NCBI GenBank assembly: GCA_965140585.1
Contig: OZ223265.1
Location: forward strand, 288,001 to 352,000
Direction: 5' to 3'
DNA: 64,000 nt
Source: Spirochaetia bacterium
GTDB taxonomy: Bacteria > Spirochaetota > Spirochaetia > UBA9216
Made by a program: the position numbers and the translations under genes. The notes beneath the pieces are model-generated. The model searched no databases. It was not told the DNA's origin and worked only from the letters and a program-made list of their open reading frames with translations. Positions 41,932 to 47,296 of this stretch are shown piece after piece; position 1 is the stretch's first letter, and every line of letters begins with the position of its first letter.

Positions 41932-43251
41932 TCAGTTTTTCATTGTCAGCGGCATTCTTGTTGTCTGAAGAACATCTCTCCATAAACTGCCTTCGGGATC
42001 TACAAAGTTGCGCTTTGAAACGGCAAGCTCCATCGGTACAAGGACGAAACGGTCATTAACCATGCTTATAAGGGCCTTTGTCTTTCCGGCCATAGCAGCA
42101 TGAACTGCGTGGGTTCCAAGCCTGAGACAGTAAATTGAATCATTAGCATCTGCAGCTGTGCTTCTTATAAGATAGCTTGGATCGATGTACTTGATGTTAA
42201 CCTCAATCCCCTCTTTATCAAAGTATTCAGCTATCTGCTCTTTCATGAAACGGCCGATATTTCCAAGGGTCTTGTTGCCTGAATCATCGGTTTGTTTCAG
42301 ATCCTCCAGCATATCCTGGCCGGCACCCTCAGCGACTATGATTACTGCCCTGTGCTTCTCACTGATCCTCTTCTTCAGATGCTCCAGAAAACCGTTGGGT
42401 CCATGCAGGTCAAAAGCGATTTCAGGAATGAGCACGAAATTAACTACGCTCATTGCAAGGGCTGTGTGGGCAGCAATAAAACCACTTTCACGCCCCATCA
42501 GTTTAACAAGACCTATTCCGTTAAAAGCGTCCTTGGCTTCAACATGGGCAGCAGCAACAGATTCAACAGCCTTTGATACCGCAGTTTCAAACCCGAAGGA
42601 GCGCTGAATAAAACTCAAATCATTATCAATGGTCTTGGGAATACCGATGATGGCAACTTTAAGACCGCGTTTTTCTATTTCATTGCTTATGGCTATGGCA
42701 CCCTTGGTTGTTCCGTCGCCGCCGATGGTGAAAAGCATATTCATGTTCAGCCGTTCAATGGCATCAACAACCTCTTCAATCTCACCGCCGCCGCGGGATG
42801 AACCGAGCATGGTTCCGCCCATATTATGGATATCATCAACAACATCGGGGTTAAGCTCAACTATCGGAAGGTTATACTCAGGAAGAAACCCCCTGTAACC
42901 GTTTCGTATTCCGGTGATGCGTCTTACACCGTACTGGTACCAAAGAGTCCGCACTATCGCCCTTATGACATTGTTAAGCCCCGGGCAGAGCCCACCGCAG
43001 GTTACAACACCGGCATGCACATGACCGGGGTTAAAATAGAGCAGTTCATGAGGACCGGATTTTTCCAGACAGAAATTTGAGTCGCATTCCGGCAGCACCT
43101 CACCCTTTTCAACTTCAACGTCGTAGAGGATGCATTCCTCATCCCTTATATAATTGACTATTCGGTCTCCGTATGTCTTTGACATCTGTATCGGTGACTT
43201 AATCTTGGCTTCACCAAGCTTCGGAATACTGAAATTATATTTCTTCGCCAT
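41932..43251 (-). CDS. pfkA: ATP-dependent 6-phosphofructokinase (long, group X type)
   Basis: TCGGLCPGLN, GGTMLGSSRG, GGDGT, PKTIDND, MGRESG, YIDPSY. Confidence 0.92.
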   Translation of the reverse strand: MAKKYNFSIPKLGEAKIKSPIQMSKTYGDRIVNYIRDEECILYDVEVEKGEVLPECDSNFCLEKSGPHELLYFNPGHVHAGVVTCGGLCPGLNNVIRAIVRTLWYQYGVRRITGIRNGYRGFLPEYNLPIVELNPDVVDDIHNMGGTMLGSSRGGGEIEEVVDAIERLNMNMLFTIGGDGTTKGAIAISNEIEKRGLKVAIIGIPKTIDNDLSFIQRSFGFETAVSKAVESVAAAHVEAKDAFNGIGLVKLMGRESGFIAAHTALAMSVVNFVLIPEIAFDLHGPNGFLEHLKKRISEKHRAVIIVAEGAGQDMLEDLKQTDDSGNKTLGNIGRFMKEQIAEYFDKEGIEVNIKYIDPSYLIRSTAADANDSIYCLRLGTHAVHAAMAGKTKALISMVNDRFVLVPMELAVSKRNFVDPEGSLWRDVLQTTRMPLTMKN

Positions 43252-43282
43252 CCGGGTTCTCCTGATGTTACAAAAAGTATTG

Positions 43283-43316
43283 TAAACACCTGAAAACAGC
43301 TTTTTTCAGGTGTTTA
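43283..43316. promoter_or_regulatory. 14-bp inverted repeat in the pfk 5' region
   Basis: TAAACACCTGAAAA-cagctt-TTTTCAGGTGTTTA, just downstream of a minus-strand TTGAAA-17-TAGTAT promoter-like sequence. Confidence 0.55.
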
Positions 43317-43383
43317 GCGTACACTAATACTAAGGTTTTTGTGCCCTGTTTTCAAGCAGGATTTTCTGCCTTAATACCGCAGC

Positions 43384-44685
43384 TCAGTTACTTGCAAGAT
43401 AGGTCCGTATTGAGTCGCCAAGCGTTTTATAAATATTCCTGCGTTTCTGATCATCAGCCTCAAGCAGTGTGAATCTGAATCCCTTGAGCTGCGAACAGAA
43501 ACCTGTAAGCGGTACTACACATATTCCAGCCGCACCAAGAAGGTAGTAAACAAAGCGCTTATCAAGTTCAAGGCCTTTAACCTTTTCTTCAACATAGTTT
43601 CTGATATCCGGCTCGGAAATCTCTAGAAACTGACCTTCATTCAGAACTCCATCTTTAAAAAGGACTGTAAAATAGAGGGCCCCCTGCGGTTTTAGAACCT
43701 GAATACCCGGAATATCCTTCATATTGATATAGGCTTCCTCAGCTCTTGAAGCCAGCATTTCAGACTGGGTACGGATATGTTCAGGGTATCTTGGATCTCC
43801 CATAATCAGAGGGATTGAAAGCTGAGGCAGAGTCGTTGAACAAACCTCAAGGCGCTTGGCGTTGATAAGGCTCGAAATGTATGTATCAAACTCCGGATCT
43901 TTTTTACGGTTGTAGACTTCAATCCAGCCGCATCTTGCACCGGGCCAGGGGTATTCCTTGCTTACGCTTTTCATCGAAACAGCAGGGACATCGCCGATGA
44001 CCTCGCATATATAGCTGAAATCGACATCGGGAAAAACCACCCTGCTGTAAGTCTCATCGGCAATAATAAACAGGTTGTAATCAGCAGCTATCTGTACGAT
44101 CTCACTTAGAAGTTCACGTGAATATACAATGCCTGTAGGGTTATCGGGATTTATAAGCAGAATTCCGGCAATTGAGTCATTGTATTTTACTTTGTTCCTC
44201 AAATCTTCGATATCAGGCAGCCAGTTATTTTCCGGATCGAGCTTGTATGTCAGATGCTCATAGCCTGAGTGAGCTGCTTCAGCTGATGAGTGGGTTGAAT
44301 AGGCAGGAGACGGTCCTATGACCCTTGCTTCTCTCTTTAAAAAACCGAAAATCTTTGCAACAGCGTCTCCAAGGCCGTTGAAAAAAATTACATCATCGTG
44401 ACTGATATGAGCTCCGCCTATTGCGTTGCATTCGGCGGCAAGAAATTTTCTTGTTTTAAGATCACCCTGACTGTCCGTATAGCGGTAACTGCTGTCGGCA
44501 GCCGCCAGGCTGGAAATTATGTCTTTCATCCAGGGTTCGATGTTGTTCCCCTTTTCAACCGGATCACCGATGTTCTCCCAGCTTATTTCCCTGCCGAGCT
44601 CTGCAATCTCATTTGCAACCGATACGATCTGCCTGATCTCATAAGTCAGCTGCCTTGCACCTTCATGTACTATCGCTCTTCTCAT
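43384..44685 (-). CDS. alaA: PLP-dependent class I/II aminotransferase, AlaA-like (probable glutamate-pyruvate aminotransferase)
   Basis: LTYEIR..ENIGDP N-terminus similar to AlaA (YDIR..LNIGNP); INPDNPTG, ADETY, SVSKEYPWPGARCGW. The Ala-rich leader supports alanine synthesis. Symbol tentative. Confidence 0.75.
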   Translation of the reverse strand: MRRAIVHEGARQLTYEIRQIVSVANEIAELGREISWENIGDPVEKGNNIEPWMKDIISSLAAADSSYRYTDSQGDLKTRKFLAAECNAIGGAHISHDDVIFFNGLGDAVAKIFGFLKREARVIGPSPAYSTHSSAEAAHSGYEHLTYKLDPENNWLPDIEDLRNKVKYNDSIAGILLINPDNPTGIVYSRELLSEIVQIAADYNLFIIADETYSRVVFPDVDFSYICEVIGDVPAVSMKSVSKEYPWPGARCGWIEVYNRKKDPEFDTYISSLINAKRLEVCSTTLPQLSIPLIMGDPRYPEHIRTQSEMLASRAEEAYINMKDIPGIQVLKPQGALYFTVLFKDGVLNEGQFLEISEPDIRNYVEEKVKGLELDKRFVYYLLGAAGICVVPLTGFCSQLKGFRFTLLEADDQKRRNIYKTLGDSIRTYLASN

Positions 44686-44723
44686 TTCAACTCCACTCCA
44701 CCGTTTTTAGTAATCACCTCTGC

Positions 44724-44756
44724 AAAAAAAAAGCAGAGTCTGTAAAAAGACTCTGC
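44724..44756 (-). terminator. attenuator terminator upstream of the aminotransferase
   Basis: Minus strand GCAGAGUCU-uuuuac-AGACUCUGC followed by U9, between the promoter and the gene start. Confidence 0.88.
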
Positions 44757-44814
44757 CATCAGCTTCAATATTAACCGGACCGCGAGCCTTTTATAAAGAC
44801 TGCGGCGAAATATG

Positions 44815-44892
44815 TCAGAACCTGTTCAACCCCGCAGTCAAAGTAGCTGCGGCCGCGGCGGATATATTCTTGTTTAAGATTGATTCCAACAT
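44815..44892 (-). CDS. Ala-rich leader peptide (25 aa)
   Basis: MLESILNKNISAAAAATLTAGLNRF*; Ala codons GCC GCG GCC GCA GCT at 44859-44845; ATG 6 nt after the -10 box. Confidence 0.8.
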   Translation of the reverse strand: MLESILNKNISAAAAATLTAGLNRF

Positions 44893-44898
44893 ATTGAG

Positions 44899-44927
44899 AA
44901 TGTACCGTCAGTCAGTGTTTATGTCAA
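44899..44927 (-). promoter_or_regulatory. sigma70 promoter of the leader/aminotransferase transcript
   Basis: TTGACA (44927-44922), 17-bp spacer, TACATT (44904-44899). Confidence 0.85.
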
Positions 44928-45058
44928 GGGGGATGATATTCTGCGATTATCATCCCGGCACAAAATCATAGATTTTCTGCGAAACCGAACTAATAAAATT
45001 GACAATCGCTTTTAACCTGAGTTAATTTGTCAGGATTTAATTTTATAAGGATTATTAT

Positions 45059-46072
45059 ATGAAAAAAAAAATTAAAACTTAAAGCTTTTCTGATAGTACT
45101 TGTCATTACTCTATTCGCATTTTACAGCTGTGATGGAATCACTACAGCAAACAGCGGTATAACCGTAACAAACCTGTCACTGAATGATACTGAGCTGACA
45201 GTTAAACTTACATCTACAGCTCAGCTTGCAGCAACAGTTGAGCCTGAGGCAGCTTCAGAGATAAGCCTCATATGGGCCACTTCTGATGAAAGCATCGTTA
45301 CCATCAGCGATGACGGAACCGCAACAGCGGTTGGTGCAGGAACTGCTGAAATAACAGTATCAACTACTGACGATTCTTTCTCTGCATCGGCGAGCGTTAC
45401 GGTACTGCCCATTTTATATGGAGTCAGCAAAGGAAACAGCAGCCTGGGAACAAGCATCCTTTATGAAATTGATTCAGAAACAGGCGAACAGCTTGCCGAA
45501 ATTGGTGATACCGGCTACTACCTTAACGGGGTCTGGTTTATGATAATGATAACGGAAAACTGTATGGAACTACATCAACTAATGATACAACACTCTCTTC
45601 CGGAATTGTAGAGGCCGGTTTTCTTAATCCGGCATTCGGACCTTCGGGTACTCTTTACGCCTGGAGTGAAAATACAGATGTACTGGTTACCGTAAACCCG
45701 TCAACCGCAGAAATAACAGAATTTGAATCATCCGGACTTTCAACATGGACACATGGTATGGATTTTGACAGCAGCGGCAATCTATATCTGATTAATCCGG
45801 AACAGGAAAATGAATCAATCGATGCTGTAGATATATACAGCATCAACACTTCCACCGGTGCTGCAACATTTGTCAAAAAGATAACAACAGATACCACCCA
45901 TGTCTATGCTCATCATGGAAAATTCAACCCTCTGACCGGATTTTTCTGGGGCATAGATAACAATTCCGGAACAGAACGTTACTTCAACATACTGGATGTA
46001 GACGCCGGAAGCAGATCATCAACCGCACAGACTATCAACAATCTGCATTCCATAGCTTTCAGAAGTAAATAG
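45059..46072 (+). pseudogene. frameshifted lipoprotein with Ig-like (Big_2) domain and beta-propeller-like C-terminus
   Basis: ATG followed by A10 puts it out of frame; the shifted frame gives KLKAFLIVLVITLFAFYSC and QLAATVEPEAA..WATSDESIVTISDDGTATAVGAGTAEITV. Second shift at G4 near 45528-45531. Confidence 0.78.
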
Positions 46073-46091
46073 ATTAGCCGGTTCAACTAAT

Positions 46092-46120
46092 AAAACAGCC
46101 CCTGTAGAGGGGCTGTTTTT
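46092..46120 (+). terminator. intrinsic terminator
   Basis: AAAACAGCCCCT-gtag-AGGGGCTGTTTTT. Confidence 0.85.
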
Positions 46121-46189
46121 GTCTTCATAAAAAGCCGGTATATCTAAATCATGCTTGCAATTATGCCTGATCTGATATTATTATTCACT

Positions 46190-47296
46190 ATGGCTTTTTC
46201 CTGCATACGCATTCACCGAAAACTGTTATTTGCCTCAATCCTTCTAACAGCAGTCTTTCAATCCATATGCGCTCAGGATGTGCAGGTTAATCTTTTTATC
46301 GGAAGCAGTCCAATAAATGCAGCCGTGTTTATAGACAGAGAACCGCAGGCCCAGGCAACACCGGTGCTTCTGAGGGGAATCAGCACCGGAAGCCATGAAA
46401 TAAAAATAATCAGCGAAAATTATCAGCCTTGCATAGATATTATTGAACTTACTGATAAAAACAGCAGCTTCTTTGCCGACCTTAACTCAAAGGTCATACC
46501 CTCATCCTTTGTTTCCGAGGAAAATATTATCCTGAGGGCTGATGAAGATAAGATCCTGGGGAATAATCTGTTAATGCCTGAAAGCTGGTACAGAATCTCA
46601 CGAGAAGGACGGGATGTAATTATCACCCCGATTTATCAAAAGGAAAAACTTTTAACCGCAATATCCACCCTGCTTCCAATATCATTCGGATTTACAGCTG
46701 CAGCCTTCGGAATAGACTGGTATGAGAGCAGCCGGATAAGATGGCCGCAGCCGCTGTATCTTACAGCGCTGGAAAGCACAACTCTGCTTCTGGCAGCTAC
46801 TGAAATTGCCCTGCTGATTGACAGAAGCGATTATCTTAAACATTACGAGATAGCCGAATTCCAGCCGGGAAGCACCGAAGCCGATGCGGAACTGATTTTC
46901 CAGCAGGCTGGTGATGCTCTTGCCGGAGGAAGCCTTGAAGAAGCGCTCAGCCTTTACAGTGAAATAATCAGCTTTCACAAAGACTCAAAATTCTACGCCG
47001 AGTCTATCTACAGGAGCGCAAAAATCCACATTATAACCGGCGACACTCCGCTGGCTGTAGCAGAACTGAATATGATAATAATGCGTTACCAGACCCCCGA
47101 AGTCTACGACAGGGCCTGTCAGGCAATTGCCCTTCTTTACTACAATCTTGATGAACCCGGAAAAAGCAAAGAATATGCAGAAAAGATGGTTTTTATTGAT
47201 CCACTGTTCTCAGGCACCGAAGAAGAGATTCAGGCAAGCGGGATAGAAACGGTCATTGAATCCTGGGCCCGCAACCCCGGGGAGAGGCTTGAATAG
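46190..47296 (+). CDS. PEGA-domain and TPR-like protein
   Basis: SSPINAAVFID..TPVLLRGISTGSHEIKI (PEGA); two TMs; C-terminal helical TPR-like repeats; start uncertain (46151 or 46190). Confidence 0.75.
   Translation: MAFSCIRIHRKLLFASILLTAVFQSICAQDVQVNLFIGSSPINAAVFIDREPQAQATPVLLRGISTGSHEIKIISENYQPCIDIIELTDKNSSFFADLNSKVIPSSFVSEENIILRADEDKILGNNLLMPESWYRISREGRDVIITPIYQKEKLLTAISTLLPISFGFTAAAFGIDWYESSRIRWPQPLYLTALESTTLLLAATEIALLIDRSDYLKHYEIAEFQPGSTEADAELIFQQAGDALAGGSLEEALSLYSEIISFHKDSKFYAESIYRSAKIHIITGDTPLAVAELNMIIMRYQTPEVYDRACQAIALLYYNLDEPGKSKEYAEKMVFIDPLFSGTEEEIQASGIETVIESWARNPGERLE

Follow-up and report, generated by a model that had tools for sequence, protein, structure and literature searches.

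A poly-alanine leader before an AlaA-like aminotransferase gene in Spirochaetia: a probable alanine-tuned transcription attenuator

Introduction

We have analysed a stretch of 64,000 nucleotides from the genome of a Spirochaetia bacterium (GenBank assembly GCA_965140585.1, contig OZ223265.1, positions 288,001 to 352,000; hereafter the window), in which a short leader element precedes a gene for an AlaA-like aminotransferase on the minus strand. The element comprises a promoter, a short open reading frame (ORF) with five consecutive alanine codons and an intrinsic terminator. In our view it is very probably a ribosome-mediated leader-peptide transcription attenuator that is tuned to alanine. 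The sequence features of the element, their conservation in related genomes, the complementarities between its segments and their predicted folds are described below, followed by the mechanism that they suggest. Loci (L) and genomes (G) are cited by our own handles where they have to be told apart.

The leader element and its terminator

The features of the locus, in positions of the window, are as follows.

44922..44927, minus strand: -35 hexamer TTGACA (sequence read and consensus promoter scan).
44899..44904, minus strand: -10 hexamer TACATT, separated from the -35 hexamer by 17 nt and from the leader ATG by 6 nt.
44815..44892, minus strand: leader ORF, ATG at 44892, 25 codons and UGA, MLESILNKNISAAAAATLTAGLNRF; predicted leaderless, with the A of the AUG at about +1.
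44845..44859, minus strand: five consecutive Ala codons, GCC GCG GCC GCA GCT, the putative regulatory run, which includes segment 1.
44847..44852, minus strand: segment 1, CCGCAG, within the Ala run; pairs with segment 2.
44832..44839, minus strand: segment 2, GACTGCGG / GACUGCGG; partner of segment 1 or segment 3.
44795..44807, minus strand: segment 3, CGCCGCAGUCUUU, with the core CCGCAGUC (= CCGCAGTC, 44798..44805); partner of segment 2 or segment 4.
44780..44792, minus strand: segment 4, AAAAGGCTCGCGG / AAAAGGCUCGCGG; partner of segment 3 or, as antiterminator, of the terminator 5' arm and loop.
44724..44757, minus strand: intrinsic terminator, with the hairpin of segments 5 and 6 at 44732-44757 and a U9 run at 44724-44732 (terminator scan and folding).
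43384..44685, minus strand: the putatively regulated gene, a 433-residue class I/II pyridoxal phosphate (PLP) aminotransferase of the NF005334 (PRK06855) family (profile matches).

In a consensus scan of positions 43000-46500 the promoter TTGACA-17-TACATT scored 10 of 12 and was the top of five promoter-like sites. Its -10 box is only 6 nt from the leader ATG and therefore leaves no room for a Shine-Dalgarno sequence. The original prediction, which was made from the sequence of the window, had described this promoter, the ATG 6 nt beyond it and the lack of a Shine-Dalgarno sequence, and each is confirmed on the minus strand. The same is true of the five consecutive Ala codons (44859-44845), among which all four Ala triplets are present, and the coordinates that it had given for the four segments (44852-44847, 44839-44832, 44805-44798 and 44792-44780) are exact. 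The predicted hairpin with a U9 run also stands, the terminator scan giving ten pairs, one of them G-U, followed by T9; the distance from the T-run to the aminotransferase ATG (44685), however, is 38 nt and not 39.

The leader RNA has a predicted minimum free energy of -56.3 kcal/mol, compared with a mean of -41.6 kcal/mol for shuffled sequences (z = -4.06), and none of 200 shuffles was as good. A permissive Rfam scan of 43000-46500 gave no match within 44686-44927 at E <= 10; the nine matches in the scanned region all lie outside the leader and far under the gathering scores.

Conservation upstream of orthologues

A protein search of 41 related genomes yielded 16 orthologue loci with 58-95% identity, 15 of which include the 5' end. 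All 15 show a TTGAC-type -35 hexamer, a -10 hexamer, an ATG a few bases on, a short ORF with 4-7 consecutive Ala codons and a hairpin with a T-run. In a class-wide sample, an orthologue (E <= 1e-100) was present in 53 of 301 Spirochaetia genomes; two loci were cut by contig ends and the remaining 51 were examined. At least four consecutive Ala codons occur in a short upstream ATG-initiated ORF at 42 of these 51 loci, so that the expectation of conserved poly-Ala ORFs upstream of orthologues is borne out in both samples. Two other loci (L115 and L120) have AAAGA instead of the longer Ala run, and two AT-rich ones (L113 and L114) retain the promoter, the ATG 6 or 7 nt after it, the short ORF and the terminator, with only two or three scattered Ala codons. 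As a control, we counted upstream regions with at least five Ala in a span of eight within a short ATG-initiated ORF: 41 of 51 have one in the forward direction, compared with six of 51 in the reverse complement. A chance origin is excluded by this conservation. A hairpin with a T-run follows in 49 of 51 distinct leaders.

We note some variant leaders. Those with scattered Ala codons (L113, L114 and L035) read SAEAT, SAKAS and SASAKA, and their helices are built from GCCACAG/CUGUGGC. Downstream of two other leaders, MYQSRFDSLLTRLSAAAGARCPVVLR and MICFRFDSHLTRHAAAAVARCPVAMR (L033/L120 and L036/L118), there is a GCCGCAGUCC...GGACUGCGG hairpin that lacks a T-run, and this could reflect a control that does not involve a terminator.

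On named genome contigs, 80 orthologue loci were checked, and a convincing leader was found only under non-Leptospira spirochaete labels (Spirochaetaceae, Spirochaetales, Treponema, Treponemataceae and Marispirochaeta). The leader was not seen in loci labelled Desulfobacterota, Planctomycetota, Hydrogenedentota, Gemmatimonadota or Fibrobacter, the exceptions being a doubtful case (L109) and one with a long ORF (L085). L109, from Fibrobacter, has an Ala-rich ORF more than 300 nt upstream, the link of which to the gene is doubtful, and it was set aside. On metagenome contigs, 20 of 80 loci have a short ORF with at least four Ala, some of them in layouts new with respect to the genomes. Seven of these loci (L190, L194, L218, L221, L184, L217 and L225) have poly-Ala leaders, for example MSSEAASAAAAAVVPVVLGGPSMA, with two tandem terminator-like hairpins and no obvious promoter beside the ATG in the upstream 330 nt, and three (L187, L226 and L222) have Ala-rich leaders with a single terminator-like hairpin. 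The best protein matches of the metagenome loci to the named loci are all about 55-67% identical and are uninformative for taxon placement. The distribution of such ORFs suggests that the element may be wider than Spirochaetia.

Coding signature and probable leaderless start

In the 51 distinct leaders the Ala run is 3-8 codons long, with a mode of 6. The third positions of the Ala codons are free and the first and second are fixed (GCC 95, GCG 81, GCA 78 and GCT 23), and 40 of the 51 runs use three or four different Ala codons. The leaders have a median of 25 codons; a median of 13 codons precede the run, and the stop codon falls 0-15 codons past it. The peptide outside the run is not conserved between families.

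Sigma-70-like promoters were scored as present when at least 8 of 12 positions matched, including A2 and T6 of the -10 hexamer, and the match ended 3-12 nt upstream of an ATG that shares the frame of the run. Such a match, with a TTGAC(A/C/G/T)-type -35 hexamer, was found for 46 of the 51 distinct leaders. The gap between the -10 box and the ATG is 6 nt in 25 of the 46 and 7 nt in a further ten (35 of 46 together), with one to three leaders at each other distance. A -10 box that sits 6-7 nt before the ATG makes a Shine-Dalgarno sequence impossible and would imply a leaderless mRNA, and we regard this spacing as a strong, if indirect, indication that the AUG is 5'-terminal. The leaderless design proposed originally is thus conserved as a promoter-to-ATG distance, and it recurs in the same genome before ilvB-ilvN, as described below. 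We also note an orthologue without a leader peptide (L129, from G155), in which the interval between the promoter TTGACC-17-TAATAT and the aminotransferase ATG is 6 nt; this gene may itself be leaderless.

Predicted four-segment and six-segment switches

The segments are predicted to form a four-segment switch resembling that of the trp leader in most relatives, and a six-segment relay resembling that of the his leader in the window's family. In the four-segment leaders (for example L010-L015 and L130-L145) the stop codon lies 17-43 nt before the 5' arm of the terminator, the stem of which is mostly GCCGCGG...CCGCGGC, the same palindrome as in the Ala codons. Each leader was folded at equilibrium with the ribosome represented by a mask and with the 3' arm of the terminator not yet transcribed. 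The mean pairing probability of the terminator 5' arm in these masked folds depended on the position of the ribosome as follows.

Ribosome stalled at Ala codons 1-3: 0.86-0.88.
Ribosome stalled at the last Ala codon: 0.71.
Ribosome at the stop codon: 0.50.
No ribosome: 0.74.

A drop from above 0.5 at the stall to below 0.5 at the stop codon was observed in 28 of 49 leaders. In the group of leaders of the type ...AAAAAA...GIAG-stop the 5' arm is paired with a probability of about 1.0 at the stall, compared with 0.13-0.5 at the stop codon. RNAalifold analysis of a 13-sequence alignment of this group returned the 1:2 helix, between the Ala codons and segment 2, and the terminator, with compensatory changes in 5 of 22 pairs. 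In the same 13 sequences the antiterminator helix is paired in 93.7% of cells, compared with 33-51% when it is slid by 1-3 columns, and includes two compensatory pairs. Low-GC relatives keep the ORF and the terminator with different helices.

The six-segment set consists of nine leaders, L001-L008 and L147. The last of these was added by the metagenome scan; L164 (68%), the only other locus above 62% identity, is of the four-segment type. In the six-segment leaders the stop codon is 51-72 nt before the terminator and therefore too far away for direct control, and an extra 3:4 hairpin lies between them. Because MAFFT misaligned segment 3 in L006 and L007, which have an inserted hairpin, duplex energies were calculated sequence by sequence for the nine leaders, with the following results.

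Pairing 1:2: -12.9 to -20.6 kcal/mol in nine leaders; window, -13.5.
Pairing 2:3: -17.9 to -23.0 kcal/mol in nine leaders; window, -17.9.
Pairing 3:4: -14.1 to -21.4 kcal/mol in nine leaders; window, -16.4.
Pairing 4:5: -11.3 to -18.0 kcal/mol in nine leaders; window, -12.8, with 11 pairs and one bulge.
Pairing 5:6: -16.3 to -18.7 kcal/mol in the nine leaders.

All five pairings were thus predicted in each of the nine, 2:3 always being the strongest, and the complete set of alternative pairings that had been read by eye in the window extends to every six-segment leader. Segment 2 (GACUGCGG) is invariant across the set. Compensatory changes are seen in the 4:5 helix: in L003 a C>U change in segment 4 is matched by G>A in the 5' arm of the terminator, and where the helix adjoins the terminator loop the pairs are AA:UU in L007 and UU:AA in L008. 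The window's genus has a wholly different terminator (GGCAGAGUCUUUUUACAGACUCUGCU) and still has an 11-pair 4:5 helix, by way of AAAAGGCUCGC. When the ribosome is stalled and the 3' arm has yet to be made, the fold of lowest energy combines 2:3 and 4:5.

Proposed mechanism

From these features we infer where transcription starts, that the leader is translated, in what order the RNA folds, how the system responds to alanine and that the enzyme forms alanine. Transcription would start at the A of the leader AUG or at an adjacent base, giving a leaderless mRNA, and a ribosome would translate the 25 codons behind the moving RNA polymerase. With Ala-tRNA(Ala) plentiful, the ribosome would pass the five Ala codons and segment 2 and reach the UGA. 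Segments 3 and 4 would then pair once made, the 5:6 terminator would form and transcription would stop at the U9 run, 38 nt before the gene. With charged tRNA(Ala) scarce, the ribosome would stall on the first Ala codons, covering segment 1 and leaving segment 2 free. The 2:3 helix, the strongest of the five, would form, and the freed segment 4 would take up the 5' arm and loop of the terminator (4:5), so that no terminator would form and the gene would be transcribed. If there were no translation at all, 1:2, 3:4 and 5:6 would be expected to form and to cause termination.

Specificity for this gene and parallel leaders

A strict scan of the window's own genome for a promoter, an ATG 5-8 nt on, a short ORF and a terminator gave seven raw matches; of the five distinct sites with an enriched residue, the Ala leader ranked first. 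A looser scan of the 4.85 Mb genome made no use of the promoter and looked for frames of no more than 70 codons from stop to stop that contain four or more consecutive Ala codons and have a hairpin with T6 within about 160 nt downstream; the Ala leader was the sole poly-Ala short ORF with a terminator. A second element of the same, predicted leaderless design is present at G000:C6, about 646552 on the minus strand (L227:2940-3090). It consists of TTGACA-17-TAATCT-6-ATG, an Ile/Leu-rich ORF (MFNNIVSGKSIISILSIIIILLSGYSMQGD) and a hairpin with T9, and it precedes ilvB-ilvN, the genes for the large and small subunits of acetolactate synthase. Leaderless leader peptides look like a habit of this group, to judge from these elements and the similar leaders of another family described next. 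Other short ORFs from the own-genome scans were rejected: a poly-Cys and two Trp-Trp ORFs are internal to longer ORFs or form their ends, and a Thr-rich leaderless ORF before proC-proA, in which the amino acid does not match the genes, was treated as chance.

Short Ile/Val-rich ORFs (MTFVIISLISVLVIIIGASAPQGEIA) with a terminator were also seen before ilvB in two genomes of another family (L262:2051-2149 on the minus strand in G054 and L263:302-400 on the plus strand in G018). The L263 version has Ser at residue 2. These leaders have a TTGACA / GAGTAT promoter-like pair 9 nt before the ATG and are weak matches to the covariance model described next.

A covariance model was built from 31 four-segment leaders and searched against 151 genomes. 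Twenty of the 21 matches at E <= 1e-9 are directly upstream of an orthologue, many of them being training sequences, and the search revealed no second target gene among the 151 genomes. The remaining match (L247, G145:C130:5181-5282) is a strong poly-Ala leader, MIERITNYRIDAAAAAAMRGWTAG, at a contig end; the orthologue of that genome is on another contig and has its own leader. Ten weaker matches were also examined and, L247 apart, contained no poly-Ala leader; they were a tRNA with a terminator, a run of Ala inside a protein, further short ORFs that have terminators and the two Ile/Val-rich ilvB leaders.

The aminotransferase

The aminotransferase matches PF00155 at 1.8e-36, indicating a class I/II PLP aminotransferase fold, and reaches the NCBIfam equivalog NF005334 (PRK06855) with 657.5 bits against a cut-off of 443; the name of this family is generic only, and no paper naming PRK06855 was found in our literature search. 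Its closest solved structures are the Escherichia coli glutamate-pyruvate aminotransferase AlaA (4CVQ, 7e-43) and a Pyrococcus-type enzyme (1XI9, 2.9e-37), both of them alanine aminotransferases. The curated alanine aminotransferase equivalog PRK08363 was not reached (164 bits against a cut-off of 534). 'AlaA-like' is therefore a fair label by similarity, yet the protein falls outside the curated alanine aminotransferase family. The leader and the nearest solved relatives together suggest that the enzyme synthesizes alanine.

Strength of the interpretation and alternative explanations

A number of our results weigh against an alanine attenuator or against its generality. The Ala codons GCC-GCG-GCN are palindromic (GCCGCGGC), and for this reason some of the complementarity between segments comes free. 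The covariation statistics of the 13 four-segment sequences are weak: of 500 shuffles, between 29 and 89 score at least as high as the real alignment, according to which measure is taken (46 to 89 for the percentage of cells paired, the counts of changes on both sides and the covariation score), and covariation alone is therefore no proof of the antiterminator. The nine six-segment leaders are too few for such statistics. As regards distribution, five of the 51 class orthologues (L127, L129, L131, L133 and L143) have no such leader; in L127, L131 and L143 the gene is within about 20 nt of a preceding coding frame. Among the 80 named loci no convincing leader was found outside Spirochaetia labels or under Leptospira/Leptospiraceae. 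A search of sequencing runs for the locus turned up no run of RNA and three matches at contig level. Finally, the genome encodes an alanine dehydrogenase (TIGR00518, 487.6 bits, over the cut-off) and a second aminotransferase, the best match of which is the alanine aminotransferase PRK08363 (341.8 bits against a cut-off of 534), so the regulated enzyme is one of several possible routes to alanine.

The most direct difficulty concerns the window's own leader. Its equilibrium folds do not switch: the terminator 5' arm is paired with a probability of 0.88 at the stall and 0.88 at the stop codon, and in the full-length RNA the terminator has a probability of 0.98 at the one and 0.95 at the other. 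With a stalled ribosome the minimum of the full-length RNA is the terminated fold, at -39.0 compared with -34.4 kcal/mol. The stall/stop switch that had been proposed is therefore reproduced by equilibrium folding in the 28 relatives mentioned above, but not in the leader for which it was proposed, and for that leader the model needs kinetic trapping, with folding in the order of transcription. The barrier from the antiterminated to the terminated fold is estimated at 13.2 kcal/mol for the window and at 11.6-16.3 kcal/mol in seven of the eight leaders for which it was calculated; the exception is L003, which has the antiterminated fold as its minimum. By these calculations, the six-segment leader of the window would fit the model only as a kinetically ordered relay. 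Kinetically ordered folding is accepted for classical attenuators.

Other explanations of the element have to be considered alongside attenuation by alanine. The leader might be a general sensor of translational stress, in which any slowing of the ribosome, by antibiotics or by shortage of any amino acid, relieves termination and alanine has no specific part. A precedent is the upstream ORF (uORF) of mycobacterial whiB7, which is reported to respond to many amino-acid shortages and to ribosome-targeting drugs (PMC10274678), and in our predicted folds a ribosome stalled anywhere before segment 2 would allow 2:3 to form. However, the part of the leader that is conserved is the tandem run of 4-8 Ala codons, at a median of 13 codons from the start, the remaining peptide being variable; the target is an AlaA-like aminotransferase and no stress regulator, and the parallel Ile/Leu-rich leader before ilvBN fits a set of amino-acid-specific leaders. 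We consider a general stress sensor unlikely.

It could also be argued that translation is irrelevant and that the element is an RNA switch, such as a riboswitch or a protein or tRNA site, with GC-rich helices that happen to read as Ala codons and an accidental ORF. Palindromes of the GCCGCGGC type do make good helices, and this motif is common to all of the segments. Against this, the reading frame is kept, in that the distance between promoter and in-frame ATG is fixed and the frame is open as far as the run and closes 0-15 codons beyond it; the third position of the Ala codons varies and the first two are fixed; low-GC relatives retain the ORF and terminator despite different helices; and the leader has no Rfam match at E <= 10. 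A switch of this kind seems to us very unlikely. We would place even less weight on an independent gene for a small protein, that is, a functional poly-Ala peptide with its own terminator, the aminotransferase being transcribed from elsewhere. The ORF is indeed conserved in presence and in length (median 25 codons), as such a gene would be, but its sequence beyond the Ala run is not conserved between families, in the scan of the window the interval from the terminator to the gene contains no further promoter-like site, and alternative pairings that overlap the terminator would be left without a role.

Neighbouring features

Downstream of the aminotransferase gene the next gene encodes an ATP-dependent phosphofructokinase, with a hairpin and a promoter-like site of its own between the two. 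On the other side, a 9-bp inverted repeat (GGGATGATA...TATCATCCC, 44930-44956, minus strand) abuts the -35 box and is not followed by a T-run; it is present twice in a relative of the same genus (L002). As a candidate operator, the repeat could bind a regulatory protein that would add a second layer of control to attenuation. Oriented divergently with respect to the leader promoter, at 45059-45600 on the plus strand, are an ATG, a run of ten A and then a frame of about 178 codons offset by one base, the translation of which looks like a signal peptide of the lipoprotein type (lipobox FYSC) and a domain of Ig-like appearance. In the counterpart of this ORF in L002 the A-run is interrupted and the start is intact. 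The frame break could be due to a frameshift in the homopolymer, to phase variation or to an error of assembly.

Comparison with known attenuators and significance

To our knowledge, alanine is not among the handful of amino acids for which classical leader-peptide attenuation is described, and the regulation of alanine is poorly understood even in model bacteria. Of the classical systems, the leader of the enteric his operon (hisL) has seven consecutive His codons and a multi-hairpin relay. The window's element resembles it in its long tandem run of one amino acid, in its three terminating hairpins as opposed to two read-through pairings and in having a terminator before a biosynthetic gene, and the predicted six-segment logic (1:2, 3:4 and 5:6 versus 2:3 and 4:5) matches that of hisL. 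It differs in the amino acid, in its leaderless appearance, in its occurrence in Spirochaetota and in preceding a single aminotransferase gene rather than an operon, and the two have no sequence relation. The leader of the trp operon (trpL), a four-segment attenuator with two Trp codons, is the closer parallel for most relatives, in which four segments supply the regulatory codons, the anti-antiterminator partner and the terminator arms; unlike trpL, these leaders have 4-8 Ala codons and a predicted leaderless start, and all of their segments derive from the Ala-codon palindrome CCGCGG. Branched-chain leaders of the ilvB type are known as the ivbL or ilvBNC attenuators. The ilvB-ilvN leader of the same genome has a promoter-6 nt-ATG layout identical to that of the Ala leader; the amino acids sensed would be different, and it serves as an internal parallel only.

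Alanine does figure in published work on leader ORFs. The uORF of mycobacterial whiB7 is described as an alanine-enriched 'Ala leader' at which alanine shortage relieves a rho-independent terminator, and WhiB7 then raises the alanine aminotransferase aspC in a feedback loop (PMC10274678). The two systems share a uORF with a terminator, and relief of termination by alanine shortage and a raised alanine aminotransferase as the outcome would be common to both. They differ in that the whiB7 uORF is long and mixed, responds to many amino acids and drugs and acts indirectly through a transcription factor (PMC10274678), whereas a pure tandem Ala run would act here in cis. In Streptomyces lividans, alaL, upstream of alaS, was proposed from RNA-seq data as an alanine-dependent attenuator, of a type that its authors call previously undescribed (PMC8079986). 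Like the leader of the window it encodes a short peptide with alanines; unlike it, alaL has six scattered Ala with AAA at the C-terminus and precedes the gene for alanyl-tRNA synthetase, and the accessible part of the paper gives no comparative or functional support (PMC8079986). The leaderless polycysteine short ORFs of mycobacteria have consecutive codons for one amino acid, as does the present, probably leaderless, ORF, and control of downstream genes through sensing of charged tRNA would be common to both. The polycysteine ORFs, however, are reported to act on translation through masking of a Shine-Dalgarno sequence, with termination not involved (bioRxiv 10.1101/834739), whereas the element of the window has a canonical intrinsic terminator.

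The original prediction knew of no characterized alanine attenuator. This has to be qualified, as an alanine-tuned uORF (whiB7) and a proposed attenuator (alaL) are in print; the narrower statement holds, in that a literature search from which subscription journals were mostly excluded brought up neither an aminotransferase gene under the direct control of a poly-Ala attenuator nor such an attenuator in spirochaetes. From the known attenuators the element would differ in the amino acid, the leaderless start, the phylum and the target gene. On balance we favour the view, with some reserve, that this is the first direct, cis-acting, alanine-specific attenuator of the classical type, with a leaderless poly-Ala leader and an intrinsic terminator, present in many Spirochaetia genera and probably also in metagenome lineages of uncertain placement.

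If this interpretation is true, alanine would join the short list of amino acids sensed by leader-peptide attenuation, and alanine charging would be sensed directly by the ribosome in spirochaetes. It would provide a label from sequence only, namely alanine synthesis, for the widespread and generically named PRK06855 family of aminotransferases, and it would mean that leaderless translation is coupled to intrinsic-terminator control outside the actinobacteria. The element may be usable as a marker for regulon-mates of the gene and for short ORFs that are overlooked by gene callers. The leaders would also form a natural series in which a switch of four segments became a relay of six as the terminator moved away from the leader stop codon, and the two forms would serve as natural variants for studying how such switches evolve.

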